From Dictyostelium discoideum (taxonomy: Eukaryota), in contig CM000153.2 in NCBI GenBank assembly GCA_000004695.1, forward strand, positions 3,872,001 through 3,936,000: a DNA stretch of 64,000 bases, read 5' to 3'. Below are positions 12,797-52,210 of the stretch, one piece after another (the first letter of the stretch is position 1; every line of letters begins with the position of its first letter). Under the pieces are notes generated by a model. It did not search any database, was not told the origin of the DNA, and worked only from the letters and a program-made list of their open reading frames with translations. The position numbers and the translations under genes were made by a program.

Positions 12797-13432
12797 AGTA
12801 AAGAAATTTTTGTTGGATTGTCCCAAAAAAAAAAAAAAAAATATTTTTAAAAAAAAAAAATTTAAAAATAAAAAAAAAAGATATTTTAAAAAGATATTTT
12901 TTTCAACATTAATGAAAAAAATAAAAAAAAAAAATAAAAATAAAATGAATAAAAAATTGATTATTATTTTAAAAAATAAAAATTTAAATATTTATGCTGT
13001 GGGCAAATATATTTTGTTTATTTATAAATTTTTCTTTTTTCTTTTTTTTTTTTTTTTTTTACTTTGTGTTAATATTTATATAAAAAAATGTTTAGAAAAA
13101 AAAAAAAAAAAAAAAAAAGAAAAAAATTAAAAAAAAAGAAAATTAAATTTTATCAAAATAAAAATTGATTTACACATCAAGATTTTTTTTTTTTTTTTTT
13201 TTTTTTGTTTTATTTTAATTTGTTTGTTTTAAAACCCAATTCAATTTTATTTTCTCTTTTTTTTTTGTAACCAAATTAAATGAAAATAAAGTAAAAAAAA
13301 AAAAAAAAGAAAATTGGAAAAATTTGGTTAAAAAAAAAAAAGTGGAAATTAACTCAAAAAGTGTAAGAATTTTGAGTAATACCAATAGGTAAACACATAA
13401 AATAAAAATTTATATGTAATAGTTTTATTTTA

Positions 13433-14050
13433 TTAAAAACCCATTAAAGTTTTTACTTTTTTAGCTTTATTTTCATCAGACAAACGAGATAATAATTCAA
13501 AAGCAACATATGGAGCAGTTTGTGGATTGTATGATGTAATTACATTTTTATCAATTACAATTGATTGATCTGCGATAACGTTTGCACCGAAATCTCTTAA
13601 TTGTTGTTGTCTAACACTATGTTCACGAAGAGAATTTCTGTAGGTTGTTGCATTTCTACCCTTTAAAATCCCACTTTTACCAAGTGCTAAAGCAGCAACA
13701 CAAACCGAAGCAATATGTTTACCCTTTGAATCGAAATCTCTTATTAATTGTGATACATCTTCACTATAGGCTTCTTCATAAAATGAATAATTTTCAAATC
13801 CACCTGGAATTGCCAATGCATCAAATTCATCCAAAGATTTAACAACTTCACCTAATAATACATCCACTTGAACTTTAACACCAAATGTACTTGTAACCAT
13901 TTTATTATACAATCCACATGTAACAACTTGAATATCTGCTTTATCTTCATTATTATCATCCTCTCTAGCCCAACCCATAACATCAACAAATGGTGTAAAC
14001 TCCATTACTTCAAATCCTTTACATAATAATAATAATATTTTTTTGGTCAT
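13433..14050 (-). CDS. DJ-1/PfpI (ThiJ) family protein, 205 aa, single exon
   Basis: ATG at 14050. Conserved nucleophile-elbow Cys in [15 protein letters not shown]-1/PfpI-like fold motifs ([18 protein letters not shown]). Confidence 0.85.
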
Positions 14051-14589
14051 TTTTTATTTTATATTTATTTTTTAAATCTAATAATATTTTTTTTTTTTTT
14101 TTTTTTTTTATTTTATTTTGTTTAATGTTAAAAACAAAAAAATTTAATCTGGGTGTCCACTTTTTTTTTTTTTTTTTTTTTTTTTGTGAAAATTAAAAAA
14201 AATTTATTTATGTAAACCACCCATACCCTTAAAAAAAAAGAAAAAAAAAAAAAACAAAGAATAAATTTTTTTTTTTTCTTTTTTTTTTAAATCTTTTCAT
14301 TTAAATATTTTAAAATGATAATTAAAATAAGAAAAAAAAATAAAAAAAAATAAAATAACAAAAACAAAAAATATTTAAAAAAAAAATAAAATAAAAAATA
14401 AATTAATCAAAACAGTGTGCGCATGTAACGAAACTTTTTTTTATTTTTATTTTTTTTTTTTTTTTATGACAAAGTCACTTTTCGCACAAAATTTTTTTGA
14501 AAATTTTTGAAAAAAAAAAGTCTTTTGGGGTGTAGATTTCAAAACCAATTCGTTTTTTTTATTTTGTTTTTTACATAAGATTTCATAAA

Positions 14590-15209
14590 ATGGTATGTGT
14601 ATACTATGTCAAATTTTATATCTGATATCACATCAAAGTTATTATGTTTTTCTTGAATAAATAATAAAAATATAATAATATCAAATAATACAATAATCCA
14701 TAATATTGATGATTGATTGATGATTGAAATTTTTTGATAAAAAAAAAAAAAAATAGAAAGAGGATTATGATGAAAACTAATACCAATCTCATACACCAAT
14801 CTATATCATATATCATCAATCTTTTATTTCGAAATAATAATAGACTAAAGGTACATTCAGTTTTGGTCGTAGACACACCAAGTCCCACACCTTATGCAGA
14901 AGATGCGGTAAATCATCATTCCACATCCAAAAGAAGACCTGTGCTTCATGTGGTTATCCATCCGCCAAAACCAGATCTTACAACTGGAGTATTAAAGCTC
15001 AACGTAGAAAGACCACCGGTACCGGTAGAACCAGATATTTGAAGACTGTCCACAAGAGATTCAACAGTGGTTTCAAAGAAGGTATGTTTTTTCTTAAATT
15101 CACATTTATATATATATATATCTTTACATTTATTGTTCTATACTAATTTTATTATTTATTTTTAACAAAATTAGCCTCTTTAGCCGTCAAAAAAACTGCT
15201 GCTAAATAA
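14590..15209 (+). CDS. rpl37: 60S ribosomal protein L37 (C4 zinc-ribbon), 91 aa; exons 14590..14592 (ATG only), 14844..15081, 15175..15209
   Basis: ATG|GTATGT at 14590-14598. Acceptor AATAATAG at 14841-14843. Exon 2 encodes [79 protein letters not shown], a strong match to eukaryotic L37e. Donor G|GTATGT at 15082, acceptor TTAG at 15171-15174, C-terminus [11 protein letters not shown]-stop. Locally GC-rich, highly-expressed codon usage (GGT, ACC, AAG). Confidence 0.85.
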
Positions 15210-16844
15210 ATAAAATCTTCAAATTAAATAGTACCTTTATTAAAAAAAAAATTAGTGTTTAGAAATTTATTGTGGAATTTTAGTTATATTTACAATTTAT
15301 TTGTTTATTAGTCTTTCTAAAAGAGACACCCATATTATTTTTATTTTTTCTCTTTTTTGTTATTTAAAAGCTTTTTTTTGTATGAATTTATAGAAACTTT
15401 ATAACTTTTTTTTTTTTTCATAAAAATAACCTGTCGATCAATATCAGAAAAAATAAATCAGTTTTTAAAACAAATAACCTCACACTTTTAACCAAAAATT
15501 TATTGTTTTTTTTGATTGAAAATAAAATAAAAATGAAATTTCCAAATATATACACTCAAAAATATCAATAAATTCGTAAAAACCTTAAAAGGGTAATTAT
15601 TAAAATAGTAAAAAAAAAATAAAAAATAAAAAAAAAAATAAAAAAAAAAAAAAAATTTTATTTTATTTTTTTTTTTTTTTAGAAAATTAAAAAGAAAAGA
15701 GTAAAAAAAAAAAAGTAAAAAATAAAAAATTAAATAAAAAAAAAAAAAAAATTAAAAATAAAAATAAAAATAAAATAATATCCTAATATCGGTAGGCCCT
15801 TAATTGTAAAATATTTTTTTATTTTTTATTTTTATTTTTTTTTTTAAAATTCTAATATTTTTTTCCTTTACCTTTTCTAAATCTAAAATAGCACAACAAC
15901 ATATAAACACTAAACATATAAAACATACGCAAATTATCAAATTTTAAGAAGACACAAGAAAATTATTTTAAAAAAAAAAGGTAAAAACAATTTTAAAAAT
16001 TATTATTATAATTTAGATTTAATTTTAAGTTTATTATAATTTTTATTTTTATTATCATTATTATTATTATTATTATTATTATCATTATTATTACTATTAT
16101 TATTATTATTATTTTTAATTTTAGATAAATAGATATATTATCCTAGTTTTGTGGATTATAAAAAAAAAAAAAAAAAAAATTTCAAAAAATAAAAACTATT
16201 AATGAATAATTGAAAAAAAAAAATAAAAAAATAAAAAAATAAAAAAAATTAGATTGTATTGCTACTTGCACCTTTCTCTTTATTTCTTTCTTTATTTTTT
16301 TATTTTTATTTTTTTTTATTTCTTCATTTCCCCCTTTTTTGTATTTTCAAATATAAACATCCATGGTGCCATTGTTTAAAATAAAACTAATTTTGGCAAT
16401 AATTATACATTTTTTTATTTAATATTTTTATTTTTTAATTTTTTTATTTTTTTATTTTTTTATTTTTTTTTCTAATAAATTAATAATAAAAAAAAAAAAA
16501 AAAAAAAAAAAAAATTTATTTGTAAAAAAAAAAAATATGGTGAATAGTAATAAAAATAAAAAAGAGAGAAAAGTAAAGAGGGTTTACACAATAAAGGGGG
16601 AAAAAAAAAAAATTTGAAAAATAAAAAAAACCAAATAAAATAATTCTTAATAAAAAAATCAATATTTTTGAATAACATACCCTTTCATCAACATCATATT
16701 AATCATCATTATTGGTTGTTGTTTAATAATTACTTTTTTTGTTTGCAATCTATACTTTTGTATCAAAAACAAACAAACACTCACCCTAATCTATTGTATT
16801 GTTATAAATATCCACCCAGCAGTTTTAATAATTATTATCAATCT

Positions 16845-16880
<36 letters not shown>

Positions 16881-17013
16881 GGGATCTATTAATTTAATAA
16901 TAATAAAAATAATAAAATAAAATAAAAAATAATAATAATAATTATTTATTTCACTCCTATTCTCTTTAAAACTTTTTGAGCATGTTTATCAGTGGTTAAA
17001 ATTCCAATAGATT

Positions 17014-17049
<36 letters not shown>

Positions 17050-18562
17050 TGTGTGTGTGTGTGTTTTTGTGGGTGAATGAGTGTGTACTATATATAAACT
17101 TTATAATAATAATAGTAATAATAATAATAATAATAATAAAAAATAATAGTAAAATTTTATAGTAGTGTTCAATAATTCATTAGTTATCGGGGGTATATTA
17201 TTAGTGGAGTTGTGTCGTTTTGATTGATGGATCAGTTTTTAGCCCATACCTTTTTATAATATTATTAATTTATTTTTCAGTTATTATCACACTCTATTTC
17301 CTTCCCCACTCACTATTATTTATTTTCATAAAATAATAGTTATCCATATAATAATTTTTAGTGTGTCAATGTGTGTTTAACTATTTTTGTTAAGAAATAA
17401 ATTAATGTAATTTCTATTTGTGTTTCCATGTTTGGTTATTAGAAATCCAAAAAAAATAAATAAAAATAAATAAAAAAAAAAAAAATAATAATATTAATAT
17501 TAAATAAAAATAAATAAAAAAAAAATAAAAAAAAAAAAAAAAGACAACACATCATATATCATATCATATCTTTTTTTAACATTGATTTTTTTTGTTTAAA
17601 AAAAAAAAAAACACATTTCCTTATAAAACTATTCACAACACTACCCCCACAATAGTGTGTTGGCACAAATTTGTTTTTTTTTTTTTTTTTTTTTTTTTTT
17701 CCTCTCACCCACTATCTCTCACATTCTCCCACTACTATTACCACTATTGCTTCTGCTGCTACTACTATTAGTAGACACATACACACACAAAAAAAAAAAA
17801 AAAAAAAAAAAAGTGGGAGAATACATCAATATTATTAATAACAATAAATTAAAAAATATATGTATATATATAAATATATAAAAAATTATGTTCATTTATT
17901 TTAATATGTGTTATGATGATCTAAGATATTGAAATTAATTATTTTAAAATTCGCCTATTAAAATTTTAATTTTTATTACTATTTTATTTTATTTTTATTT
18001 TTATTTTTTTTTAAAAAATACACACCCAAAATTTGTCTCTATTTCTCTATTCCATCTTTTTTACAAACACACCCCTCACTATTACCATCATATCAATAAC
18101 AATAATAATAAAATTGTAGTGTGTGCTGGTGGGTTGGTTTTTGTTGTTGTTGTTGTTTTTGGTGTTTTTTTTTTTTTTTTTTTGTTTTTTGTTTTGTTTT
18201 GTTGTTGTTTGAATAGATGTAACCAATAATGATAATATTGTTTTTATTTTTTTTATTTTTTTATTTTATTTTTTATTTTTTTTTTTTTTTTTTTTTTTAT
18301 TTTAAAATAATTATTTATAAATAATTTGATTTTTGGTGTTTTCCATCTTAGTGTTTTTTAATTTTTTAATTTTTTTTTGGTTGTAGTTAATTTTATTTGT
18401 TTTGTTTTTCTTTTTTTTTTTTTTTTTCTGTATCAATAATAACAATATTTAGAGGGAAAAAAATAATAAAATAATAATAACCATATCTTTTTAAATTCAA
18501 TTTTAATATTATAATATTTATTTATTTTTATTTTTTAATTCTATAACAGACCATTTGTACGT

Positions 18563-18614
<52 letters not shown>

Positions 18615-19367
18615 GGGTTTTACACCGGCTCCCATTCCCCTTGAAACATTAATTACCAAAGGGGTGGTTTTTTTAAAATTAAATTAAACCTTCCCTTTTT
18701 CGGCTAAAACCCCTAAAAAAAAAATTTTTAATTAATTAAAATAAATTAATTAATTAATTAAAATTAAAAAAATTTTTAAAAAAATTAAATTAAATTAAAT
18801 TAAATTAAGGAAACCTTTTCTTATTGGAAAATTTTTTAAAAAATTTTTTTAATTGGGTTTTTTTTTTTTTTTTTTTTAAAAAAATACTTAGATTTTTTTT
18901 TTTTTTTTTATTGTTTTGTGAACCCGAAAGACTTTTAATTTTTTATTATTTTTTTTTTTTATAACCAAAAAAAAAAAAAAAAAAGAATATTATTAAACAA
19001 TAAAACTATATACACAAGATTAATAAATAATACTTAATCATATATAAATACAAAAAAAAAAATAATAATAATAATAAAAATAAAAATCACGATATATCCA
19101 TTGGCAACGAGAAATTAAGACCATACTAATTAATTAATTTAAAAAACAGTTGTCTTCATTTTTTTTTTCGAAACCAGCACAAATCTGATTAAAAAAAAGT
19201 ATGTTATTTCTTAAAAAAAAAAAATTAATTTTATTTATTTTTTTTTATTTTTTTTTTTTTTTCCTCCTCGAAAATATCTTTTTTTTTTTTCAAAGAGAAA
19301 AAAAAAAAACCAATCATCGTTGATGCTTTTTGCTTCCCAAATTTCTATTACAAAATATAAAAAATAA

Positions 19368-19400
<33 letters not shown>

Positions 19401-19727
19401 AAATCACCAAAAAAAAAAAAAATTTTCAAAAACTTTTTTTCACATAAGCGTTTCATCACAACTTTTCTCACAAAAATAAAAAAAAAAAAAAAAACAAAAT
19501 AACAATAATAGAAAAATTTATATACAAAATTCTATTTTGTTTTGAACAAATCCTTAGGAATAAATATTTATATTATATATAAATAATTAAAAACAACTAA
19601 ATATATTGGCTTTATATTTTTTTTTTGAAAAAAAAAAACAAAAAAACAAAACTAAAAAAAACAAAAAAAAAAACGAAACAAAAAACAAACAATCTATTTA
19701 TTTATTAAATCTATTTATTGATTTAAT

Positions 19728-19739
19728 ATATTTATTAAT

Positions 19740-19802
<63 letters not shown>

Positions 19803-19805
19803 TTA
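19728..19805. repeat. (ATTT)n tetranucleotide microsatellite
   Basis: tatttatttatttattt... tract read directly. Confidence 0.9.
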
Positions 19806-20252
19806 TAAAACTTAAAAAAAAAAAAAACAAATAAAAATAAAATTTTTTAAAAAAAATAAACAATAACCACTGTTGATATAGGTATATATTTAATAATAAA
19901 CAATTAGTTCTCTCAATGTAATATCAAAAATTATTTAAACTAACCTGATACACAATCATATGCACAGGTTCATATAAAATAATTTTGTCAAACTACACCA
20001 CCCCTTTTTCACACATTTTTTATCTATACATATAATTAAAATTTTTTTTTTTATTTTTTTATTATTTTATTTTATTTTTTTTGAAAATTTGTTGCACACT
20101 TCATATAAAATTAAACACAATCATTCAAACACAATAAGTTATATATAACTGTTATAATAATAATAATTATTATATTAAAAAAAAAAAAAAAAAAAAAAAA
20201 TAAATAATAATAAAAATAATAATTATTCTCATATAATGCAACAGGAGTAATT

Positions 20253-20286
<34 letters not shown>

Positions 20287-21037
20287 TAAAAAAAGTGAAC
20301 AGGAAAAAAAATAAATAAAAATAAAAAAAATAATAATAATAATATAACTCCAACTCCAACTACAACTATTATTTTTTATTATTAATAATTTATCAGTTGG
20401 TATCAAACAATTTAGTTAAAAGGTTTATTTCACATAATAAAATTTTTAAAGAAAATAAATAAAAAAAACAATAAAAAAAATAATAATCTTAAAAAAAAAA
20501 AAAAAAAAATCAAAGAAAAAAATCTTTTTTGAAATTAGTTTCTTTATTTTTCTCGTTATAATAAAAAACAAAAAAAAGAGAAAAAGAAAAAAAAAAAAAG
20601 AAAATAAAATTTATAGTTATATATCGGGAAACTCAATAAAAATTTAATAAATAAAATAGTCCATATTAAATAATATATTTTTACAACCACACCCCCAACC
20701 AATAATCAAAAAAAAAAAAAACCAAAAAAAAAAAAAAAATAATAAAACTTTGATTGATTAATTTATTATTTTATTTTATTTTTATTTTTTTTTTAATGTT
20801 AGAGTGTGTGTTAACCCCTTTTATTCACCAACCCACCATTCATCAGAATCATAAATTTTTTATTTAATATATATATATAATAATATATCTAACATATTAT
20901 TATTTTTATTAACTTTTTTTTTTCTTTTAAAAAAATAATCAGATATCAAATATTTAGATACCCCTACACTCAATAACTTTAATAATAATTTCTACCAATT
21001 AAAAAACACTTAATTTCAAGTTGATTTATTATAGAAA

Positions 21038-21072
<35 letters not shown>

Positions 21073-21364
21073 AAAAACTATCAACTATTTCAGAAAAACA
21101 AAAAAAAAAAAAAAAAGAAAAAAAAAAAAAAAAGAAAAATATATATATATAAATATATAACACAAAGTTGTAAGTATATATAAGTAATAGATAATTAATA
21201 ATAAGACCGCACGACAAGAATCACATATTACTATATTTTTTATTTCAAATTGCCCACCCATTTTATAACAAACACACTCGAAAAATTCTATTTTTTGATA
21301 GTAGTCAGGATTACTTTAGGTTTTTTTTTATTTTTTTTAGAGAATTTTGATATATATTATTTAT

Positions 21365-21403
<39 letters not shown>

Positions 21404-21445
21404 CACACACATACACCAAATTATTTATAATGTTTAGATATTATA

Positions 21446-21487
<42 letters not shown>

Positions 21488-21518
21488 TTTAATATTTTTA
21501 CCAACCACATATAATAAA

Positions 21519-21623
<105 letters not shown>

Positions 21624-22324
21624 AAAAAAACCCACATATACACACACATTTAATATATTCATAAAAAACCATAATAGATCTATTCATAAAATAATAATAA
21701 TAATAAAATAATAATAATAATAATAAAAAAAATAAAAAAAATAAAATAATAATTTGTTTTTATAAATTTATTTTATTTATTCCACCCTCTTTATTTATTC
21801 ATTTATTTATTCTTTTTTAGTCAAAAAATTTTATATACTAACATAATAATAATTGTTTAAGCAGATACTTTTATATATCTACCAATATATAAGAAATTTC
21901 TTTATTATGTTTTTAGAGAATCTCATATGAACAAAAAAAACATTCATCCAATAGCAATATATTTATTTATTTAAACAAACAAAATAGCATAACAAAAACA
22001 ACCAAAAACCCAAATCTCAAATTTATTTATTTAATTTATTTATTTATTTATTTATTTATTTCACAATAATAACAACAACACAAATTATTTTTTTTTTTTT
22101 CTTTTAATATTTTTTAATTTCAATTAGACTTTACAATTTATTGTCTCAATATTTTTTTTTTTTTTTTTTTTTTTTTTATTATATTAAATTTTATTTTTTC
22201 ATTTTTTTTTTTTATTCAATTAACACAATTTAAATCGTAATAATATTATACCCTTAAAATATCTATATAAAATATACTTATATTTTTAATTATATATTTA
22301 TAAATTCTATTTATATTATTTTTT

Positions 22325-22368
<44 letters not shown>

Positions 22369-22502
22369 AACAGATAAAAAAAAAAAAAAATAATTTAAAA
22401 CACCACAATCATACACACAATAATAAATTCTTTAAAGAAATAATTTTTTTTTTTTTTTTCCACCACAAAAAAAAAAAAAAAAAATTTTAAAACTTCAAAA
22501 AG

Positions 22503-23906
<1,404 letters not shown>

Positions 23907-31941: not shown

Positions 31942-32474
31942 TATAAAAAAAAAAAAAAAAAAAAAAAAAAACTTGTAAATCTTTTCTTTTCTTTTCCAAT
32001 AAATAAACATTTTAATTATTAAAAAAAAAAATAATAAAATAATTTTATGAAATTGTTTGCATAAATAATATTATTGTTTATTGATTGGTATAAGAATAAT
32101 TGCAAATTACAAAAATGTACAATTAATTCGATATATATTAAAAAAAACTTTTTAAAAAAGAAAGAAATTAAATTTTATTTTAAAATCAATAAGAATTTAA
32201 AATGTGAGCTCTTTATTTTTAATAATTAAAAAAATATACCAAATTCATTAATTAAAAATTTAATTTATTAAATAAATATTTGAGGAATTAGTTTTCCACT
32301 TTAATTGTTTTTTTTTTTTTGTTGTTTTTTTTTTTTTTTTTTTTTGATGCTTATATTTTTGATGTTTGTAAATATGTAATTATAACAAAATTCTACAATA
32401 TGAAAGATTTGATTGATGGTTTACTAGGTGATATCATCTCATCTTTCTTTTTAATTGATTTTTTTTATATATTT

Positions 32475-33183
32475 CTAAATTCCTACTTCAGCTCCTGATG
32501 ATGAAGAAGATGAGGATGATGAAGAGGATGAAGAGGATGATGAAGATGATGAGGAAGACGAAGATGAAGATGATGAGGAAGACGAAGATGAAGATGAAGA
32601 GGATGAAGAAGAGGATGATGATGATGAGGATGATGATGAGGATGATGATGAGGATGATGATGAGGATGATGATGAGGATGATGATGAGGATGATGATGAT
32701 GAAGAGGAGGATGAGGATGATGAAGATGAAGAAGAAGAGGATGAGGATGATGAAGATGAAGAAGAAGAGGATGAGGATGATGAAGAAGAAGAAGATGAGG
32801 AAGAAGAAGAAGATGAGGAAGAAGAAGATGATGATGATGAAGAAGAGGATGAAGAAGAAGAAGATGATGATGATGAGGAAGATGATGAACTATAAGAAAG
32901 CAAGTTTCTTGAAGTTTCAATAACCAAAGAAAATCCTCCTATTTTATTTTCTAATAAATCATTTCCATTTAAATTTTTTCTTAAAAATAAAAAAAAAAAA
33001 ATTAGTATTTACTGGATTTATTTATTCTAGGAAAAAAAAAAAAAAAAAAACCTACTTTAAAGAGTATAAATTTATTTTTGGTTCTTGATTTGTTATATTG
33101 ACGCTTTTTCTATGAGGGTTAATAAACATCGGAATTGTTATTAACAAACATGCAAAAATTATGAAAAACCATTTATAATTCAT
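32475..33183 (-). CDS. Candidate secreted poly-serine protein: exon 1 33056..33183 (signal peptide) and exon 2 32475..32889 (~135 consecutive Ser), 166-bp intron; ~180 aa
   Basis: ATG at 33183-33181 encodes MNYKWFFIIFACLLITIPMFINPHRKSVNITNQEPKINLYSL. Donor AA|GTAGGT at 33055-33050 (phase 2) and acceptor TTCTTATAG at 32891-32890 join in frame to TCA/TCT/TCC Ser codons and the C-terminus GAEVGI-stop. The poly-Ser ORF has no ATG of its own. The opposite strand reads the same tract as poly-Asp/Glu (see finding). Confidence 0.4.
32495..32890. repeat. Imperfect (GAT/GAA/GAG)n trinucleotide tract of ~400 bp (Asp/Glu on the plus strand, Ser on the minus strand)
   Basis: Read directly: gatgatgaagaagatgaggatgatgaagagg... 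with internal higher-order (GATGATGAGGAT)n blocks. Confidence 0.9.
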
Positions 33184-44754: not shown

Positions 44755-45692
44755 ATGGCAAGCTCTTCACCAAATATAGCATCACCTCAATTAGGTATAA
44801 GGAATAGATTTTTGAATACAAGTAGTGGAAATATAAATTTACAAACCAATAATAATAATAATAACAATAACAATAATAATAATGATATAAATGATAATAT
44901 AGCATCACCTCCAATTTCAAATAATAATAATAGTAATACAGCATGTTCGCCGCAATTAGTGTTACCTACAACACCTACACCAACATCTACCAATATTTTA
45001 AGCCCATTAACTAATAGCAACATACCGATATCANNNNNNNNNNNNNNNNNNNNNNNNNNNNNNNNNNNNNNNNNNNNNNNNNNNNNNNNNNNNNNNNNNN
45101 NNNNNNNNNNNNNNNNNNNNNNNNNNNNNNNNNTCTACAACAACAACAGCAACAACAGCAACAACAACAACAACAACAACCTCAAAATACTATACATCAA
45201 CATCATAGTCAACTCTTACAGTATCAACACCAACATCAACAACAACATAATCAACAGTATCCACAACCATTACAACACAACCATCAACAACAACAACATC
45301 AAAATCAACAACAGCAAAATCAACAACAGCAAAATCAAAATCAACAACAGCAAAATCAACAACAACAGCAAAATCAACAACAAAATCAACAACAAATTAA
45401 TAATGCAGCACCAGTTAGAAAGAAATATAAACCATTACAAAGAAATAATACAGCAAATCATGATTTAACAGCATTTTATGGATGGATTATTATTATATGT
45501 ACATTAACTTTTTTCATTATTTCAACATATTGTTTAGTATTTTCAAAGTTATTACCTGATACTGGTAACAGAATTTTAGATTTCATAAAGTATGATTGGT
45601 ATTATTGCTTATTGGTACCTGTTATTATACCTGTCACTATTATAACTGTTTATTTCAATTGGTTAAGTTTAAAGTTCTTTAGACATAATTAA
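44755..45692 (+). CDS. PIG-Y/Eri1-type GPI-GlcNAc transferase subunit (C-terminal two-TM domain) with a long Asn/Gln-rich N-terminal extension; CDS interrupted by an assembly gap
   Basis: The C-terminus YYCLLVPVIIPVTIITVYFNWLSLKFFRHN-stop (stop 45690-45692) aligns with human PIGY ..CFYSLLLPITIPVYVFFHLWTWMGIKLFRHN-stop. The post-gap reading frame is open and Gln-rich back to the gap with no in-frame ATG, so the start lies before or inside the gap. An ATG-initiated Asn-rich ORF (44755) runs into the gap from the 5' side. Confidence 0.55.
45034..45133. other. Assembly gap (100 N)
   Basis: Run of n characters; the length is a placeholder, so reading-frame continuity across it is unknown. Confidence 1.
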
Positions 45693-46231
45693 ATGAAGTT
45701 TGGGTGTGTGTGTGCTTGTGCCTGTATGTGCGTGTGCGTGCTTCATAAATGAAGCATCAATCAATTATTGCTTTATTATTTATTATAAATGATTTCTTTT
45801 TTTTTTATTTTTTTTTTTTTTTATTTCTAAATAAATAAAATAAAACAAAATAAAATAAAATAAAATAAAATAAAATAAAATAAAATAAAATAAAATAAAA
45901 AATAAAATAAAATAAAATAAAAAAGATCAAATCACATTTTTTTTTGTTTTTTTTATTTTTTATTTTTAAATTTTATTTTCATTAATTAATATTGAATTTT
46001 TCAAACATATTTCAGATTTTTTTTTATAATTTTAATTTTTTTTTTTTTTTTTTTTAATTTTTTCAAATTATATCCATTTTTCAAAAGCACACACAATTTA
46101 ATTGTGTGTTGTCCATTGTATTAATTTAATATTATAATATTTAAATAAAATATAATTTAAACCAATTCATTTTTTTATTAAACAAAAAATAAAAAAAAAA
46201 AATAATAAAAAAAAAAAATAAAAAAATAATA

Positions 46232-47175
46232 ATGGGTGTATCTAGATCTACATTAAGAACTGAAGAGATCGAGGAAATCAGAGAAGTATCAATTTGTATG
46301 TAAAAAAAAAAAAAAAAAAAAAAATTTGTATTTATTCACCAATATTACAAAATACTAACATAGCACCAACAACAATGATAACAACAATGATAACAACAAC
46401 AACAACAACACCAACAACAAAAACAATAACATTATGATAATTTTTAACAATGATTATCATTTAATTAGTTTCACAAAGAGAAATTAAAAGATTATATAAA
46501 AGATTTAAAAGATTAGATAAAGAGGAAAAAGGGTCAATAAATGTAGAAGATTTTAATCAAATACCAGAGCTATCAATGAATCCAATGTTACCTAGAATCA
46601 TATCTATATTTGATGTTAATAGAGATGGTCAAGTTAACTTTAAACAATTTGTAAAATCATTATCAACTTTTCATCCAAAAGCTGATAAAGCTGATAAAAT
46701 TAAAAGTTTGTAATTTAAATTTTATAATAAATAAATTATTATTATAATTACTAACAATCAAATCATAATAATAAAAATAATAATGATAATAATAATAATA
46801 ATAATAATAATTTATTTTAGTATTATTTAAAGTATATGATATTAATAATGATGGGTTCATAACAAGAGATGAAATTGAAACCATTTTAACAATGATGGTT
46901 GGTTCAAATTTAACAAAAGAACAAATTTCAAGTATTGTTGAGGAAACTCTCAATGAAGCTGATGTAAATGGTAAAGGGAAATTAGACTATCCAGATTTCT
47001 ATAATGTAATGTTTTTTAATTTATCAAAATACTTTTTTTTTTTTTTTTTAAACAATCATTAACTTATTTTTTTATTTTTTTATTTTTTTATTTTTATTTT
47101 TTTTTTTAGTCAATCGGATCATCAGGTTGTAATGCCGAAAATATGCTTTCCATTTCTTTTAATCCTTTTGAATAA
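46232..47175 (+). CDS. cnbA: Calcineurin B regulatory subunit (4 EF-hands, N-terminal Gly for myristoylation); exons 46232..46295, 46469..46705, 46821..47005, 47110..47175; 183 aa
   Basis: MGVSRSTLRTEEIEEIREVSI|FSQREIKRLYKRFKRLDKEEKGSINVEDFNQIPELSMNPMLPRIISIFDVNRDGQVNFKQFV..KADKADKIK|ILFKVYDINNDGFITRDEIETILTMMVGSNLTKEQISSIVEETLNEADVNGKGKLDYPDFYN|SIGSSGCNAENMLSISFNPFE. This aligns along its length with human CNB (..[68 protein letters not shown]..). Donors T|GTATGT (46296), A|GTTTGT (46706, non-canonical) and AAT|GTAATG (47006). Acceptors AATTAG (46467-46468), TTTTAG (46819-46820) and TTTTTAG (47108-47109). Confidence 0.75.
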
Positions 47176-47439
47176 GAAAATAATGAATAATATGTGTAAA
47201 TAAAATGAAACTAAACAAATGAAACAAAGATTGATGAGAATAATTCAGTGTGGAAAAATAAAATAAAAAATTAGTATAATAAATATAAATTTATGTATTT
47301 TTGTTTTGGGTATAGTTTTGTAAACTTTTTATTTTTTATTTTTTATTTTTTATTTTTAAGAACAAAGAGTAAGGAATGAAAAGGAAAAAAAAATTGATTT
47401 GATTTGATTTGGATTGGTTTATCAGGCACAGTTTTAAAA

Positions 47440-47600
47440 GGTTTTTCCCGTACAGGTTTAACAAGTTTAAGGGTACGGTTCAGGTTTATCAGTTACAGGT
47501 TTAACAGTTATAACAGGTACAAGCTTTGCAATCTTAACAGGTTTATTATTTAATATGTTAATCATCTTTGCAATCTTAGCAGGTTTAACAATAATTTGAT
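47440..47600. repeat. Degenerate tandem motif region (ACAGGTTTAACA-like units, CTTTGCAATCTTA(A/G)CAGGTTTA twice) 220-380 bp downstream of the tRNA-Asp gene; possible fragment of a tRNA-gene-targeted retroelement
   Basis: acaggtttaacaagtttaagggtacggttcaggtttatcagttacaggtttaacagttataacaggtac..ctttgcaatcttaacaggttta..ctttgcaatcttagcaggtttaaca read directly. The link to TRE-type elements is inference from their known tRNA-proximal integration in Dictyostelium. Confidence 0.35.
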
Positions 47601-47794
47601 CCAGTCTTTTTTAATATGAAACTACTCAAAGACTCCAATGCAAAAATAGAAATCAATGACAAACAATAGGCACTTTGAATTTTTAAAGTAGTGTTGTTGT
47701 GGTTTTCCTTAAACAATAAAAAAAAAAAAATTAATTATAATTTTTTAAAAAAGAAAAAAAAATAAATAACAGGAGGGTCAATTTTTTTCGAAGT

Positions 47795-47808
47795 TCGGAT
47801 TTCGAATT
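47795..47808 (-). promoter_or_regulatory. External B-box-like element (tRNA sense TTCGAAATCCGAAC) about 15-30 bp downstream of the tRNA-Asp gene
   Basis: Resembles the internal B-box consensus GGTTCGANTCC duplicated outside the gene, as described for Dictyostelium tRNA loci (exB box). Confidence 0.45.
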
Positions 47809-47821
47809 TTTAATAAAAAAG

Positions 47822-47893
47822 CTCCCTGTCCGGGAATTGAACCCGGGCCTTTCGCGTGACAGGCGAAAATCCTCACCACTAGACCAACAAGGA
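47822..47893 (-). tRNA. tRNA-Asp (anticodon GUC), 72 nt, intron-less, followed by a T6 Pol III terminator
   Basis: Minus-strand sequence TCCTTGTTGGTCTAGTGGTGAGGATTTTCGCCTGTCACGCGAAAGGCCCGGGTTCAATTCCCGGACAGGGAG. 7-bp acceptor stem (1 G-U pair). D-loop AGTGGTGA. Anticodon stem TTCGC/GCGAA with loop CTGTCAC (GTC at 34-36). T-arm CCGGG-TTCAATT-CCCGG. Discriminator G. TTTTTT immediately 3'. Confidence 0.85.
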
Positions 47894-48354
47894 TTTGTGA
47901 TATTTCTCAATTTTTTATAATCACGAAATATGGTAAGATAGTAAAACAATCTCCTTTTTTGGATTTCATTTTTCACATAAAAAAAAATAAAATTGTAGAC
48001 AAAACACAAATAAAAAAAACAATTTCAAATATGTCATCAACATCAATCACGAAGCCGACTATAAAATAAAAAAAGATTTAGAAAAAAGTTTGGACAAAAA
48101 AGATGTTTTAATCAAAAGTAATAATACAATTCAAAATTCGAAATAAAAAAAAAAAAAAAAAAAAGTAAACCAACCCCTCTTTTAGAGACCCTGTAAAAAA
48201 TACTACAAATAAAATGAGATCTAGCATTTCAAGGAGAAGTAACTAATAATTGCGTTATCCAATTCAAAAAAAGCAAAGATGGATAGCACAAAGGGGTCAA
48301 TTTCTATTACAAATTAAAATATCTTAAATGTGTGTCAAATTAATTTCAAATTAT

Positions 48355-48510
48355 AATTTTTTTAATATCAGTAAAGATTATAAAAATAATATTTTTTAAT
48401 TATTATTTTATTTATAATAATTATGTCACTACTTTAAATTAATATAAATATAAAAAATAATTTAATTTTCAATTCAGATTAATATTCTCATTTCTAAAAG
48501 ATAAAACTAT
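48355..48510 (+). repeat. Copy A of a ~150-bp AT-rich dispersed repeat (head ttaatatcagtaaagattataaaaataata ... tail caattcagattaatattctcatttctaaaagataaaact)
   Basis: About 92% identical to the reverse complement of copy B over ~148 bp (aligned by eye). Confidence 0.8.
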
Positions 48511-49387
48511 TTAAATAAATAAATAAAAATAAAAATATTGAAAATAAAATAAAATAAAATAAACAAAAAAAAAAAAAAATTTCATTTCGTCAAAGAATCA
48601 TATTTTCTCTTGCACGCCACATGCATTTCATTTGCTGAGTTCTTAGTTGGTTTCAAAAATTATATAATAAAAGGTGATTTTTTCAAACATTTAAGTGGAG
48701 ATGCCACTTAATTATTTGCAAAAAAATCAAATGATGCTAATTTTTGTCAAGATTACAAGTTTTCTTGAAAGATATATCATGGTTAGAAAAGTTATTACAA
48801 TTTCCAAAATCAAAATATGAAGGTTTAGAAACTTTAATTTTTAATTTCACAAATTGCTCAAGTGATTGATACTCCAGTTTAAAAGTGAATTGGTAAGAAT
48901 TTCCTCTGAATCGTTGCCACCTCAATTAAGAATTGAAGTTGAAAAACAAATAATTACTGATGTAGCTCATTGTATGGAATTGGTTAGAAAGATTGAAAAT
49001 GCTAATATCAGCATTTATGATAAATCATTATACACTGGTAAATCAGTTCAAAATCAATTTACAACTTATAATGCCAATAATGGTATAAATAATACAATAA
49101 TAATAATAATAACTATAGATATAAATTTGAAGATAATATAGATGATTATGAATCACCCTATAAAACTCCAAAAATTAAATCAAATCCTTCTTTAGATTCA
49201 TCTGGTTCATCTCATTATTCTTTTGTAATATTTATATAACCAATTATTTATTTACAAATTTATCTAATTAATATTTTATTTATATTTTATTGAATTTAAT
49301 AATATTATCTTAATTTTATATTTAAATAATCTTTTTATATTATAACACTTCATATATTAGTTTATATTTTTTTTTTTATTTATTTAA

Positions 49388-49545
49388 AAGTTTTATCTTT
49401 TAGAAATGAGAATGTTTATCTGAATTGAAATTAAAATTTTTTTTATATTTATATTAATTTAAATGAGTGACATAATGAGTATTGATAAAATAATAATTAG
49501 AAAATATTATTTTTATAATCTTTGCTGATATTAATAAAATTATTA
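49388..49545 (-). repeat. Copy B of the same repeat in inverted orientation: tail-to-tail with copy A across an ~870-bp internal segment, head-to-head with copy C across ~20 bp
   Basis: Reverse complement reads tttattaatatcagcaaagattataaaaataatattttctaattattattttatcaatactcattatgtcactcatttaaattaatataaatataaaaaaaattttaatttcaattcagataaacattctcatttctaaaagataaaact. Confidence 0.8.
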
Positions 49546-49565
49546 TTTAAAATTATATTTCAAAT

Positions 49566-49730
49566 AATTATTTTATTAAAATCAACAAACATTATAAAAA
49601 TAATGTTTTTTAATTATTATTTTATTGGTATTCATTATGTCATTCATTTAATACTAATATAATAAAATAATTTAATTTCAATTCAGATTAATATTCTCAT
49701 TACTATGAGATAAAAGCTATTAAATAAAAA
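49566..49730 (+). repeat. Copy C of the same repeat (~80% identity to A), forming a ~330-bp near-palindrome with copy B
   Basis: ..atcaacaaacattataaaaataatgttttttaattattattttattggtattcattatgtcattcatttaatactaatataataaaataatttaatttcaattcagattaatattctcattactatgagataaaagct read directly. Confidence 0.75.
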
Positions 49731-50004
49731 TATAAATAAATAAATAAAATATAAATAAATATAAATATAAAAAGTGTTTCAAATATAAAAAGAATTTATA
49801 ATGAGCTTTCCAATTCAAAAAAAATCTTCTCATTTCAAAACTTTAAATTGCTCAGTCAAATCAACAAAAAGGATTATAATTAAATTCAAAAGTGAATTTA
49901 TTTTTATTTTATCTTTTAAATGTTATTTTATTATAATAAATTTATATTTTTATGAAAATATCTTTTAATTTAAATAAACTACAAAGAATCTTTTTTTTTT
50001 TTTT

Positions 50005-50040
<36 letters not shown>

Positions 50041-50083
50041 TTATTTATTTTTTTTTTTTTTAAACATATAATGATTAAATTTA

Positions 50084-52210
50084 TTACAAGTTCCAGATCG
50101 CTTTTTTATAATCATTCCAATCACCATCAAAGTTTTTAACTTCTTTTGGTTCACCTTCTTCACCATCGAAATACCAAATTTCATCACAAACCAAAGAAAT
50201 TAATCTTTCATCGTGAGATACTAAAAGTATACCACCTTCGAAAACATTGAGAGCATGACAGAGAGCATCAACGGTATCAATATCCAAATGATTTGAAGGT
50301 TCATCGAGTAAGAGAATGTGAGGTTTGGTGTAAGAGATTTGAGCCAATACGACACGAGACTTTTGACCACCAGATAAAGTATTTACAGTACGAAGGGCGA
50401 TATCACCAGACAAACCAAATTTACCCAAATGAGAACGAGCAGTTTGAGCGGTGGTACCAGGATATTTGGCGAGGAAATTATCGAGTGGAGATTTGGAGAG
50501 ATCCAATTGATCGACGAAATGTTGACTGAAACGAGAGAATCTTAGCTTACCATTACGGATGACCAAACCATTGGTTTCTTCCAACTCGCCACATAACAAA
50601 CGAAGGAGAGTTGTTTTACCGGCACCATTTGCACCGACGAGAGCTACACGACTACCCATATCGATACCAAGATTGAGATTTTTAAAGAGGAGTTTATCTG
50701 GAGTGTAACCAAATGAAACGTCTTGGAATTGAAGAATGGGTGGTGCCAATGGTTCAGGTTCCAAGAATTGAAGGGTAACGGTTGGATCATCCAATACTTC
50801 ACCAATATCCTCCATACGTTCCAATTGTTTGATACGAGATTGTGCCATTTTTGCACGTTTAGCATTGTAACGGAAACGATCGATAAATGCTTGAATATGT
50901 TTTTTTTGAGATTGTTGAGCTTCGAATGAACGTTGTTGAGCCTTCAAACGATCAGAACGAGTACGTTCAAACACTGAATAGTTACCCTTATAATAGTCGA
51001 TCTTTTTATTGTTCAAATGCATGATATCGGTACAAACTGCATTGAGGAATTCACGTTGATGTGATACGATGACCAAGGTACGATTCCAATTGACCAAGTA
51101 GGACTCTAACCAAAGACAAGCAAACAAATCCAAATGATTGGTTGGTTCATCCAATAAGAGAACATCTGGTTGAATAAAGAGTGCACGAGCCAATGAAATT
51201 CTCATTCTCCAACCTCCACTGAAACTTTTGGTTGGTTGTTGTTGCATTTCCTCTGTGAAACCTAAACCCGAGAGAATTGCTGCAGCTCTTGATTCGGCGG
51301 TATGAGCATCGATATGATTGAGTTTCTCATAGATGCTATTGAGTTTCTCTGAGAGATTATTCTTTTCACTCTCTGGGAGAGCGTTTAAACGTTTCTCTTC
51401 CTTTAAGAGACGATCCCTCTCAACGTCTGCTTCGAGTACACACTCGATAACTGTGGTTTCATTACCATTGACCTCTTGTTCCACATGAAGAATTGAGAGA
51501 TTATTATCGATACCAATCTCTCTTGAGGCAATATGACGAAGAAGTGTTGTCTTACCAGTACCATTTCTACCAATTAAACCATACTTTCTACCATAGTTTA
51601 GATTGAGATCAGAGTTGATGATCAAATCATTCTTACCATAGGTGACATTGAATGCATCCACATGAATATCACGTGATTGATTGGTACCACGAATAGTTGA
51701 TGCCATCATGGTTTGTTGTTCTTTCAATGAGTTTAATGCTGCCAATGCTGCATTTTGACGAAGTTTCTTTCTCTCCTCTTTGGCAAGACGTGCTTCCTTT
51801 CTTGCATTGTAACGTTTTTCATTGGCTTCCAATTGATCCTTGTTCACAATGGAAATGCCTTCCTCTGCTTTCATCCATGATACTGCTGCTCCAACACGAT
51901 CATCCAATCTTTGAAGTGCTACTGGTTGTGATAATTGTGTAATTGTTTGTTTCTGTTTAATTGTAATGAGTTTTTCATTCACCAATGCCTCCACTATACC
52001 ATTGATTGCGCTATTGACTCCACTTTCATCATCTGCAAAACATGTATCCAATAATAATGGTGATAATATCTCTGTCAATTCATCCATATCACTATTGACT
52101 CCTTCATCTTCAAATACTCCTGATATATAATCAATGATTGTTTCATCTATATCTTTGGTTTTATCTCCTAATGTTTTTTCAATTACACTTTTAATTTCCT
52201 TTGATACCAT
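50084..52210 (-). CDS. ABCF-subfamily ATP-binding cassette protein (GCN20/ABCF3 orthologue type: N-terminal GCN1-interaction-like domain + two ABC ATPase domains, no TM domain); 708 aa, single exon
   Basis: ATG at 52210. Walker A GRNGTGKTTLLR and GANGAGKTTLL. ABC signatures LSGGWRMRISLARALF and LSGGQKSRV. Walker B LLLDEP twice. Collinear with yeast GCN20 (DIHVDAFNVTYG.. compare DIHIDTFDLYVG; SILHVEQEV compare SILHVEQEL). Confidence 0.9.
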   Translation of the reverse strand: MVSKEIKSVIEKTLGDKTKDIDETIIDYISGVFEDEGVNSDMDELTEILSPLLLDTCFADDESGVNSAINGIVEALVNEKLITIKQKQTITQLSQPVALQRLDDRVGAAVSWMKAEEGISIVNKDQLEANEKRYNARKEARLAKEERKKLRQNAALAALNSLKEQQTMMASTIRGTNQSRDIHVDAFNVTYGKNDLIINSDLNLNYGRKYGLIGRNGTGKTTLLRHIASREIGIDNNLSILHVEQEVNGNETTVIECVLEADVERDRLLKEEKRLNALPESEKNNLSEKLNSIYEKLNHIDAHTAESRAAAILSGLGFTEEMQQQPTKSFSGGWRMRISLARALFIQPDVLLLDEPTNHLDLFACLWLESYLVNWNRTLVIVSHQREFLNAVCTDIMHLNNKKIDYYKGNYSVFERTRSDRLKAQQRSFEAQQSQKKHIQAFIDRFRYNAKRAKMAQSRIKQLERMEDIGEVLDDPTVTLQFLEPEPLAPPILQFQDVSFGYTPDKLLFKNLNLGIDMGSRVALVGANGAGKTTLLRLLCGELEETNGLVIRNGKLRFSRFSQHFVDQLDLSKSPLDNFLAKYPGTTAQTARSHLGKFGLSGDIALRTVNTLSGGQKSRVVLAQISYTKPHILLLDEPSNHLDIDTVDALCHALNVFEGGILLVSHDERLISLVCDEIWYFDGEEGEPKEVKNFDGDWNDYKKAIWNL

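Follow-up and report, generated by a model that had tools for sequence, protein, structure and literature searches.

DGLT-A is a Ty3/gypsy LTR retrotransposon of Dictyostelium discoideum with 265-bp LTRs that integrates 13-33 bp upstream of tRNA genes and is known solely as partial copies and solo LTRs, the latter termed 'H3R' elements, and it stacks at one tRNA gene (PMC5006619). Its single ORF encodes Gag with a CX2CX4HX4C motif, followed by RT, RNase H, and integrase (PMC5006619). Dd_Skipper-2 (formerly DGLT-P, AF474004) is a degenerate, tRNA-gene-associated Ty3/gypsy element present in 8 copies and having an LTR of 208 bp, and in the DIRS-1 element the terminal repeats are inverted and ORF1 has no known function (PMC5006619).

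The locus described here, the spacer between abcF and a tRNA-Asp gene of D. discoideum AX4, is of an ordinary kind for this genome. We read it, with a probability of roughly 0.55, as a pile-up of decayed insertions of tRNA-gene-targeted LTR retrotransposons, in which a repeat we name R, present as copies A (+), B (-), and C (+), is an LTR-type repeat. Coordinates are positions in a 64,000-nt stretch of AX4 DNA (CM000153.2, 3,872,001-3,936,000), referred to as the window, and the features of the locus are collected in Table 1. The AX4 spacer was compared with the orthologous loci of nine other assemblies (ten in total), among them two divergent isolates (L009 and L010) and D. firmibasis (L014). 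An independent AX4-type assembly (L001) was 100% identical to AX4 over 45200-50400 with the same arrangement, which was also seen in Logan read assemblies, and the arrangement is therefore not an assembly artefact. Logan contigs of other runs had the AX4 sequence and were broken at the repeats, and so carry no information on polymorphism.

Table 1. Features of the abcF-tRNA-Asp locus of D. discoideum AX4, in window coordinates.
Feature	Position	Strand	Basis or remark
Downstream motif, B-box-like TTCGAAATCC, overlapping the 'external B-box' of the first-pass annotation	47789..47808	-	motif scan, orthologue comparison
T6 run, Pol III terminator directly 3' of tRNA-Asp	47815..47820	-	read from sequence
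tRNA-Asp(GUC)	47821..47893	-	ARAGORN; Rfam RF00005, 61 bits
TX unit, second LTR-like repeat	47914..48296	+	begins ~20 bp (~20-24) upstream of tRNA-Asp
R copy A	48301..48545	+	full head 48301-48340; directly 5' of Gag relic, same strand
Gag relic, frameshifted, start-less, N-terminal ~200 aa	48581..49239	+	HMMER, nucleotide alignment, tblastn
R copy B and tail-side flank	49255..49555	-	without first ~40 nt of R head (multiple alignment)
Palindrome center, 3-nt spacer between B and C heads	49554..49556	.	repeat alignment
R copy C, mirror image of B	49557..49802	+	without first ~40 nt of R head
Last ~20 nt of older X copy (CTTTCCAATTCAAAAAAAA), then abcF-side spacer	49803..49875	+	orthologous to L009/L010

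The tRNA-Asp(GUC) gene and its T6 terminator, both noted in the first-pass annotation, were recovered. The tRNA sequence is identical across eight aligned orthologous loci, except for its 3' end in L012, and the gene is present also in D. firmibasis. It is the landmark, and probably also the target, for insertions on its upstream side, which is the right side in window coordinates. On the downstream side, the proposed external B-box proved to be B-box-like merely, as a scan of 47600-48000 for the published motif GTTCRANNC (PMC5391098) matched solely the tRNA-internal B box at 47834-47842, with no second match downstream of the AX4 gene. A 13-nt motif, AATCCGAACTTCG, overlaps the proposed box, and most of the eight orthologues examined carry it, with small variants, downstream of their tRNA. 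L009 and L010 carry GTTCRANNC matches (GGTTCGAATC in L009) ~35-45 nt downstream of the tRNA end, whereas AX4 does not. The adjacent tandem-motif block does have a weak 15-nt period (4.1 copies, 66% matches), but it sits inside the last exon of an EF-hand gene model (L001 annotation, window 46232-47599).

The tRNA-Asp gene is kept in all ten assemblies while the spacer separating it from abcF varies, measuring 231-245 bp in D. citrinum, 679 bp in L012, 1019-1021 bp in L009 and L010, 1070 bp in D. firmibasis, 1606 bp in L011, 2190 bp in AX4, and 5137 bp in D. dimigraforme, which favors the LTR reading. The presence and absence of R, polarized by the abcF tree, favors it too. Only AX4 has three copies; L009 and L010 have one, L011 has a partial copy, and R is missing from the spacers of L012 and the outgroups D. 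dimigraforme, D. firmibasis, and D. citrinum, the last being empty. The single R of L009 and L010 lies in the orientation of copy B and comes without Gag. Copy B is its positional orthologue, the homology extending beyond R itself into flanking sequence (L010rc 9243-9529 aligns with window 49266-49553, and L009rc 9256-9525 with 49288-49553), and this agreement in orientation and extra flank again argues for the LTR reading.

The three homologous copies of R had been recognized in the first-pass annotation in their correct orientations (A and C direct, B inverted), but the unit is ~245-270 bp long, not ~150 bp. Measured from A, R has a length of 245-265 bp, and in L009 it spans 265 bp (9303-9567), although the ends are fuzzy in AT-rich sequence; copy A may extend to a CA at 48564-48565. 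Homology of A with the single R of L009 and L010 begins at 48301 (87%, E 6e-80). Copies A and B, in inverted orientation, share 128 nt at 90% identity and are pairwise 88-90% identical, while A and C share ungapped pieces of 79-84% identity and 83.3% over 204 columns in gapped BLAST. The block common to A, B, and C is ~205 bp; AT-rich background alignments in the window reached ~62-68% at most. A 26-nt core motif of R occurred exactly 3 times versus 0.00 expected from shuffles, and neither this count nor BLAST revealed further copies in the 64-kb window. BLAST against the orthologous loci compared and L002, the D. citrinum locus discussed below, returned no R beyond the abcF-tRNA-Asp locus, and Smith-Waterman alignment of A, B, or C with L002 detected no similarity above shuffled controls. 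Exact-pattern scans of collections of metagenome and genome contigs, in which Dictyostelium is almost absent, gave 0 hits to the R core. The GC content of R, 9-10%, is as in the neighboring non-coding spacer, and its ends show no clear TG...CA and no definable TSD. Multiple alignment revealed a tail motif, AAAAGTGTTTCAAATAT, in C, B, and the R of L009 that is missing from A. The four R copies are near-equidistant (82.5-87.7% identity), and because the quartet site counts of 6, 4, and 1 are star-like, the site patterns do not settle the order of duplication. A candidate inverted R-head remnant at 48085-48125 was rejected, as its score falls within the shuffle distribution.

The segment between A and B had been taken for ~870 bp of AT-rich DNA. 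It is ~790 bp, has a GC content of 25% versus 9-10% in R, and holds the coding relic of a Gag protein, which the AX4 annotation lists as a hypothetical protein, DDB_G0286001. The relic spans the ORF at 48866-49141, which starts with TTG and is without ATG, and the ORF list contains no transposase at the locus, both as originally noted. A HMMER search with the relic returned as homologues its own gene model and D. citrinum P0003 only (the latter with E 9.9e-11 and 52% identity), and it recovered none of the annotated Dictyostelium retrotransposon proteins. A word-indexed protein search with a trimmed alignment returned DDB_G0286001 alone, and another with P0003, swamped by poly-N words, returned only P0003 itself. 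At the nucleotide level, the relic is 67.7% identical to L002, the D. citrinum locus encoding P0003, over 711 columns (E 3e-60). Its match to the P0003 protein, assembled from three reading frames, is 47% over ~200 aa, and the tblastn alignment consisted of four HSPs spread over three frames (E 1e-22). Most likely, then, the gene model DDB_G0286001 is a Gag pseudogene annotated in error.

P0003 combines a CX2CX4HX4C zinc knuckle with a retropepsin domain (Pfam gag-asp_proteas, a hit exceeding the cut-off), and has weak PDB matches to a retroviral nucleocapsid, a copia VLP protein, and a retroviral-like aspartic protease. Its ORF and the adjoining sequence showed no RT, RNase H, or integrase, and its AlphaFold model, with a mean pLDDT of 35.8, was unusable. 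L002 is non-syntenic with the AX4 locus. Its Gag-protease ORF is flanked on both sides by direct TGTAACGAAAG repeats, which we call T-type, and a tRNA-Lys gene begins ~210 bp past the start of the 3' repeat copy, the end of the repeat being undefined. The LTR reading is favored because the interior is the Gag relic of an LTR-type element, and because this relative is non-syntenic, flanked by direct repeats, and located beside tRNA-Lys. It is favored also by the placement of copy A, which shares the strand of the relic and precedes it by ~50 bp on the 5' side; the sequence after copy A is A-rich.

Between tRNA-Asp and copy A lies the TX unit, whose degenerate start, ATAATCACGAAAT at 47917, corresponds to TGTAACGAAAT in L011, where that sequence lies 22 bp upstream of tRNA-Asp. 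The X part of the unit (48178-48293) is dispersed and tends to accompany tRNA genes on their upstream side. It matches L009, L010, and L011 on the right-hand side of the R copy in each, and also L002 (15201-15301, E 3e-12), where it sits upstream of tRNA-Lys. The recurrence of X and T units upstream of other tRNA genes likewise favors the LTR reading. Because R adjoins opposite ends of X in AX4 and L009, a stacking model must assume two independent X-type insertions, a point against the LTR reading. Apart from A-rich runs, AX4 47895-48620 and the 5' region of L002 showed no colinear similarity. A possible 7-bp direct repeat, TCAATTT, at 47907-47913 and 48297-48303 is weak and could be chance. 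The poly(A) at 48145-48165 was considered as a truncated TRE5 tail and rejected, as it aligns with an internal A-run of X in L009 and L011.

Fold-back inversions, palindromic duplications, and DUP-TRP/INV-DUP structures form at DNA breaks. The head-to-head palindrome that the first-pass annotation had seen in B and C is present, with 3 nt between its arms, but it measures ~2x265 bp and not ~330 bp. The arms (49285-49553 and 49557-49823) are 86% identical over 258 columns, and folding of 49330-49760 gave -148 kcal/mol (z = -21), in keeping with a strong hairpin. The outer end of B is ~40 nt shorter than the head of A, and these ~40 nt are carried by A and by the single copies of L009, L010, and L011. 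Since B and C are without the same ~40 nt at the palindrome center, 3 nt apart, copy C appears to be the product of a fold-back copying event rather than a separate insertion, contrary to its earlier description as a foldback or solo copy, and the shared truncation favors the LTR reading as well. Arm B is orthologous to the solitary copy in other isolates, so the palindrome would have arisen in place. The + - + order, the 3-nt center, the arms truncated alike, and a one-sided deletion resemble fold-back and DUP-TRP/INV-DUP products, a mechanism that we infer from the structure alone; the arms, however, are only 86% identical, which suggests that the event is old. Outside the palindrome, window 49806-49875 is 82% identical to L010rc 9674-9750, and 49806-50021 matches L009rc 9670-9865.

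The claim that mobile-element debris occupies the zone adjoining the tRNA gene is supported by these data, and the following events could have produced it. Elements that integrate upstream of Pol III-transcribed tRNA genes, always at about the same short distance, would shift older ones outward with every new insertion, and the old copies would decay. If R is taken as a terminal repeat of LTR type, ~250-265 bp long, copy B would be an old solitary copy, common by descent with related isolates, and copy C a hairpin-primed fold-back mirror of B, formed following a break ~40 nt inside R that also deleted ~144 bp toward abcF. A second insertion, oriented the other way, would have left copy A and the Gag relic as its 5' end, having since lost its protease, pol, and 3' LTR. 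Lying ~20 bp from the tRNA, TX would be a separate LTR-like unit not placed in the insertion order, and the DNA at the locus would be inert today. We rejected A as a mirror copy of B, because X would then have to be inverted on the left of A; the X there is in + orientation.

That DGLT-A targets the upstream sides of tRNA genes, has 265-bp LTRs, and stacks (PMC5006619) also favors the LTR reading. The AX4 locus is similar to DGLT-A in its position on the tRNA upstream side, with TX starting ~20 bp from tRNA-Asp versus 13-33 bp; in the length of R, ~245-265 bp set beside the 265-bp LTR by description; in the CX2CX4HX4C knuckle, found here in the D. citrinum relative; and in consisting of partial copies and solitary repeats only, stacked at one tRNA gene. 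Copy A now starts 408 bp upstream of the tRNA gene, and its original distance can only be inferred. The locus differs from DGLT-A in that the relative P0003 is a Gag-protease without RT, RNase H, and integrase; AX4 keeps ~200 aa of the Gag N-terminus. The DGLT-A primer-binding site, TGGCGACATCGTCTTTC, was found neither near 48545-48620 nor elsewhere in the element with up to 4 edits allowed, which weakens membership but does not exclude it, because the copy is degenerate. The 208-bp LTR of Dd_Skipper-2 is near the ~205-bp A/B/C block when compared by description, but the polypyrimidine tract that follows the left LTR of Skipper is not seen after A, where the sequence is A-rich.

Other points count against R as an LTR: its occurrence solely at this locus among the window, the orthologous loci, and L002; the lack of clear TG...CA ends and of a definable TSD; the absence of the DGLT-A primer-binding site near A; its dissimilarity to the sequence flanking P0003 in D. 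citrinum; the missing tail motif of A; and the near-equidistance of the four copies. As the flanks in L002 are T-type and a T-type start lies at 47917 in AX4, the LTR of the Gag relic could be TX, and R could then be a leader sequence or unrelated.

R may instead not be mobile at all, an explanation we consider unlikely, although it is the strongest competitor. A local AT-rich spacer would have been triplicated in AX4 and its middle copy inverted during replication or repair, in a fold-back or DUP-TRP/INV-DUP-like rearrangement. This would have taken place around the insertion of an unrelated retrotransposon with TX as its LTR. The confinement of R to this locus in the sequences searched and its spacer-like GC content agree with such an origin, and rearrangements of this kind classically yield the + - + order and the symmetric truncation seen in B and C. 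It would also accommodate the T-type repeat, instead of R, on both sides of the D. citrinum Gag-protease ORF, as well as the T-like start 20 bp from tRNA-Asp in AX4 and L011. However, the absence of R from the spacers of D. citrinum, D. dimigraforme, D. firmibasis, and L012 argues that R arrived as an insertion, the + orientation of X contradicts the inverted X predicted at the left of A by a mirror origin of that copy, and A lies exactly where the Gag relic would have its 5' LTR or leader.

We give little credence to a combined proposal in which the Gag relic and P0003 would represent an unclassified, tRNA-upstream-targeting LTR lineage in the D. discoideum/D. citrinum group, and the hairpin of B and C would be transcribed and diced into small RNAs directed against it. 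Such a lineage would be non-autonomous because it would encode Gag and protease alone. Even with up to 2 mismatches allowed, none of the known D. discoideum miRNAs of Table S1 in PMC6161686 matched the window. If R and the Gag relic do form an unclassified family, one more tRNA-targeting dictyostelid lineage would be added, and the known picture would be unchanged.

More doubtful still is the class assigned in the first-pass annotation, a non-autonomous DNA transposon with ~200-bp TIRs, or a foldback-type element, made up of A, the interior, and B, with C as a solo or foldback copy. Inverted repeats of 88-90% identity do enclose ~790 bp, B and C do form a long hairpin, and transposase is absent, all of which recall MITEs and foldback transposons; the arms of ~2x265 bp, the 3-nt center, and the z of -21 would fit an FB-like element as well. 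Yet the interior is a retroelement Gag relic, and B, truncated by ~40 nt at its outer end and so not equivalent to A as a 'TIR' end, is orthologous to a solitary copy. The orthologous site in L009 and L010 has R singly and without Gag, so that A, interior, and B have not been seen moving as one unit. No TSD was found at the proposed ends, where the sequence left of A and that right of B share copy-C sequence alone; none is possible there because copy C itself adjoins B on the right. A decayed DIRS-like (tyrosine-recombinase) retroelement with a Gag-like ORF1 right after its left inverted repeat is barely credible, since the order A (+), Gag (+), B (-) resembles DIRS-1 but the only relative of the relic has the zinc knuckle, retropepsin domain, and direct flanking repeats of LTR (integrase-type) elements, DIRS elements are not known to have a protease, the ORF list holds no RT/recombinase ORF or remnant, and B is found solitary in other isolates too.

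With the locus read as stacked remains of tRNA-targeted LTR retrotransposons, the ten-assembly comparison would provide a clean natural case of a tRNA gene as a recurrent landing pad, its spacer varying between 231 bp and 5.1 kb and its resident elements differing from lineage to lineage, and would suggest that old insertions are reshaped, here into a fold-back palindrome, and not simply eroded. For curation, the AX4 hypothetical protein DDB_G0286001 is very probably a retrotransposon Gag pseudogene; the last intron of its gene model is the palindrome of R copies.

The tRNA-Asp(GUC) gene proposed in the first-pass annotation was confirmed, with a T6 run immediately following it, and across the spacer lies abcF, the AX4 "ABC transporter-related protein" XP_637946.1. 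Window positions 45200-50400 were 100% identical to the independent assembly L001 (GCA_054883475.1), and 48550-49746 were exactly reproduced in Logan read assemblies, so that the arrangement of the three copies of the repeat R (A, B, and C) is real and no assembly artefact. The copies, earlier described as ~150 bp long, were present in the orientations A (+), B (-), and C (+), and the unit proved longer than thought. The inverted arms of A and B span 128 nt at 90% identity, and those of B and C 95 nt at 87% identity with a 3-nt gap between them. Gapped BLAST gave 90.2% identity over 194 columns for A-B and 83.3% over 204 columns for A-C, whereas AT-rich background alignments within the window reached only ~62-68%, and a 26-nt core motif of R occurred three times against 0.00 expected. 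The start of A was set by comparison with other genomes. The longer arms of the B|C palindrome were 86% identical over 258 columns, and the suggested secondary-structure check bore the palindrome out, the region folding at -148 kcal/mol (z = -21).

The segment between A and B had been regarded as AT-rich, but its GC content was 25% versus 9-10% in R, and it is protein-like in three successive frames. Its only database match was the hypothetical protein DDB_G0286001 of D. discoideum AX4. In a full HMMER scan with this 121-residue protein (P0001) against 1.84 billion representatives, only two sequences besides the query were accepted: an ORF fragment from its own locus, and P0003, which comes from D. 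citrinum, is 692 aa long, and shares 52% identity (E 9.9e-11). The internally repetitive protein P0004 (E 5.5e-4, without an aligned stretch) was disregarded as spurious. The matching part of the window showed 67.7% nucleotide identity to the P0003 locus (E 3e-60); the four tblastn HSPs were spread over three frames (E 1e-22), and the conceptual translation was 47% identical to P0003 residues ~1-210. P0003 carries a zinc knuckle of the form CX2CX4HX4C (CHHCGRIGHIQAHC) along with the Pfam domains gag-asp_proteas and Asp_protease_2, both above cut-offs, and in the PDB it weakly matches copia VLP protein, a retroviral-like aspartic protease, and a nucleocapsid of retroviral type. On these grounds it is the Gag-protease of a retroelement of the LTR type, and the segment in AX4 is a start-less, frameshifted relic of the N-terminal third of such a protein, with copy A ~50 bp upstream on the same strand. 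DDB_G0286001 was assembled from this relic and is probably a misannotated pseudogene on which a gene finder placed a model; the final exon (IKAIK) falls within copy C, and the last intron thus crosses the B|C palindrome. The L001 annotation instead has a 126-aa model ending inside copy B.

The P0003 gene resides in D. citrinum at a locus (L002, GCA_054859145.1) non-syntenic with the window. Direct repeats of ~40 bp, starting TGTAACGAAAG, stand on either side of its intact ORF, and the 3' copy begins ~210 bp before a tRNA-Lys gene. No reverse transcriptase or integrase was found near the ORF in L002, and the element may be non-autonomous or domesticated. The protease motif reads VEAGAT, versus the canonical D-T/S-G-A. 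A palindrome between the element and tRNA-Lys occupies the same kind of position as the B|C hairpin.

Other repeat units occur in the spacer. Unit X matched sequences in L009, L010, and L011, and also in D. citrinum L002, where a second tRNA-Lys gene has it ~90-190 bp upstream; it was oriented away from the tRNA in every case, and is therefore a dispersed, tRNA-gene-associated sequence. The 10 nt TGTAACGAAAT that begin the repeats around the Gag-protease ORF of D. citrinum also open a unit found in L011, 22 bp upstream of tRNA-Asp. A degenerate form, ATAATCACGAAAT, occurs in AX4 at 47917, ~24 bp from tRNA-Asp, and runs on into X to form the TX unit. It is the T-type repeat that has a direct link to this Gag family.

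Proteins that cluster with abcF at 90% identity led us to the orthologous spacer, measured from the abcF stop codon to tRNA-Asp, in nine other assemblies, the AX4-type L001 among them. tRNA-Asp was kept throughout; the Gag relic and the triple R were seen in AX4 alone among the assemblies compared. In the abcF coding tree, L012 branches off first within the discoideum group; divergence from AX4 was ~1.4-1.5% for L009/L010 and L011, and ~6.3% for D. citrinum and D. dimigraforme. Since R is absent from the outgroups and L012, it came into the spacer by insertion within the discoideum group, and the triple arrangement is specific to the AX4 lineage.

Features of the tRNA-Asp/abcF locus and of loci compared with it
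Locus	Feature	Position	Length	Content
AX4 window	EF-hand gene model (L001 annotation)	46232-47599
AX4 window	Supposed tandem-motif block	47440-47600
AX4 window	13-nt motif	47789-47801
AX4 window	tRNA-Asp(GUC) (-)	47821-47893
AX4 window	TX unit	47914-48296
AX4 window	X	48178-48293
AX4 window	Copy A	48301 onward
AX4 window	Match to P0003 locus	48517-49185
AX4 window	DDB_G0286001	48731-49727
AX4 window	B|C palindrome arms	49285-49553; 49557-49823
AX4 window	abcF ORF (-)	50084-52210
AX4 window, L001	Spacer		2190 bp	R x3 and Gag relic
D. citrinum (L007, L008)	Spacer		231-245 bp	R and Gag relic absent
D. cf. discoideum (L012)	Spacer		679 bp	R and Gag relic absent
"D. discoideum" isolates (L009, L010)	Spacer		1019-1021 bp	Single R; Gag relic absent
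D. firmibasis (L014)	Spacer		1070 bp	R and Gag relic absent
D. cf. discoideum (L011)	Spacer		1606 bp	R head (~120 bp) alone
D. dimigraforme (L013)	Spacer		5137 bp	Other content; R absent
L009 (reverse complement)	Single R	9303-9567	265 bp	Orientation of B
L009 (reverse complement)	Hairpin	9150-9225	~70 bp	Ends GTTACATTTTAACTC / GAGTTAAAATGTAAC
L011 (reverse complement)	Duplicated tRNA-Asp start	8393-8412; 9014-9040		First ~5 nt of tRNA-Asp and ~15 nt of upstream flank
L002	Gag/zinc-knuckle/protease ORF with flanking repeats	9429-12300	692 aa	Intact
L002	Palindrome	12177-12263	87 bp	90% identity
L008 (D. citrinum isolate 2)	Non-LTR ORFs	12564-16894		RVT_1, weak Exo_endo_phos match
L013 (D. dimigraforme)	Non-LTR ORFs	16285-20316		RVT_1
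L014 (D. firmibasis)	Non-LTR ORFs	13550-20000		Unclassified ORFs

Because B shares the orientation of the single L009/L010 copy, and homology continues ~60 bp past the end of R into the flank, B is the positional orthologue of that copy. In L009/L010 the R head is followed by 4 nt, X, and the abcF-side spacer. In AX4 the head of B is ~40 nt short and joined across 3 nt to C, which is cut at the same position; beyond C no more than the final ~20 nt of X remain. The equal truncation of the arms, the minimal spacer, and a one-sided loss of ~144 bp are suggestive of a break inside R followed by fold-back (hairpin-primed) repair, which would have yielded the mirrored B|C. Symmetric truncation and a minimal spacer are not what one would expect from two insertions made independently. 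Copy A has the full head and lacks the tail motif AAAAGTGTTTCAAATAT common to B, C, and L009. Over 171 unambiguous columns the R copies were nearly equidistant (82.5-87.7% identity; 6, 4, and 1 informative sites), which makes the duplications about as old as the AX4/L009 split.

The locus looks like a stack of remains of tRNA-targeted LTR retrotransposons, and we give a probability of about 0.8 to the broader view that a tRNA landing pad has here collected debris of retroelements, as opposed to a TIR DNA transposon. What is observed comprises the Gag relic with its relative, the presence/absence pattern, the orthology of B, the way B and C are symmetrically truncated, and the dispersal of X and T; from this we infer that R is an LTR and that A belongs with the Gag relic, as well as the fold-back step and the order of events. 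Published behavior of DGLT-A fits such a stack at tRNA-Asp: this element, whose LTRs measure 265 bp, inserts at D. discoideum tRNA genes 13-33 bp upstream and survives as partial copies and solo LTRs ("H3R") alone, later insertions displacing earlier ones (PMC5006619). The DGLT-A primer-binding site, however, is absent here. R was found only at this locus (among the 64-kb window, orthologous loci, and L002), showed no clear TG...CA ends, and did not resemble the sequence flanking the D. citrinum element, whose family is linked to the T-type repeat instead; target-site duplications, sought at the proposed ends, were not found. Because of these points, we hold R to be the LTR-type repeat of a tRNA-targeted retrotransposon with only slightly better than even confidence, and think it rather unlikely that R is local spacer DNA which a rearrangement around an inserted retroelement triplicated. 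The TIR/MITE reading of the first-pass annotation and a DIRS-like reading each failed specific tests of membership.

Nothing indicates a present function of the locus. A possible role of B|C as a hairpin RNA is unsupported: none of twelve published miRNA loci maps to this place. The locus is of an ordinary kind for the D. discoideum genome, though what it holds may be an unclassified member of a class already known.

The duplicated tRNA-Asp start in L011, its copies ~620 bp apart and bracketing the block that begins TGTAACGAAAT, resembles a long target-site duplication. The L009 hairpin, upstream of tRNA-Asp, is absent from AX4. Non-LTR retrotransposon ORFs or fragments lie downstream of tRNA-Asp in L008, L013 (where the model runs across it), and L014, at a TRE3-like position that is empty in AX4.

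Downstream of tRNA-Asp, the external B box claimed earlier stood as a B-box-like element; the motif GTTCRANNC (PMC5391098) matched the internal B box alone within 47600-48000. A 13-nt motif overlapping that element, AATCCGAACTTCG in the tRNA sense with small variants, recurs ~15-35 nt downstream of tRNA-Asp in most of eight orthologues compared. L009 and L010 have external B-box matches further downstream, which AX4 lacks. The supposed tandem-motif block does show periodicity, which is weak (15 nt) and falls inside the last exon of the EF-hand model; it would encode a hydrophobic tail (…TGLTVITGTSFAILTGLLFNMLIIFAILAGLTII*). This stretch aligns with L009/L010 and had no BLAST match to D. citrinum. 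Elsewhere in the window, 100 N at 45034-45133 mark an assembly gap within an N-rich ORF, which L001 spans with 86 bases, and the composition profile showed a GC skew of -0.35 to -0.50 at 14-16% GC over 19001-23000 and of +0.60 over 32001-33000.
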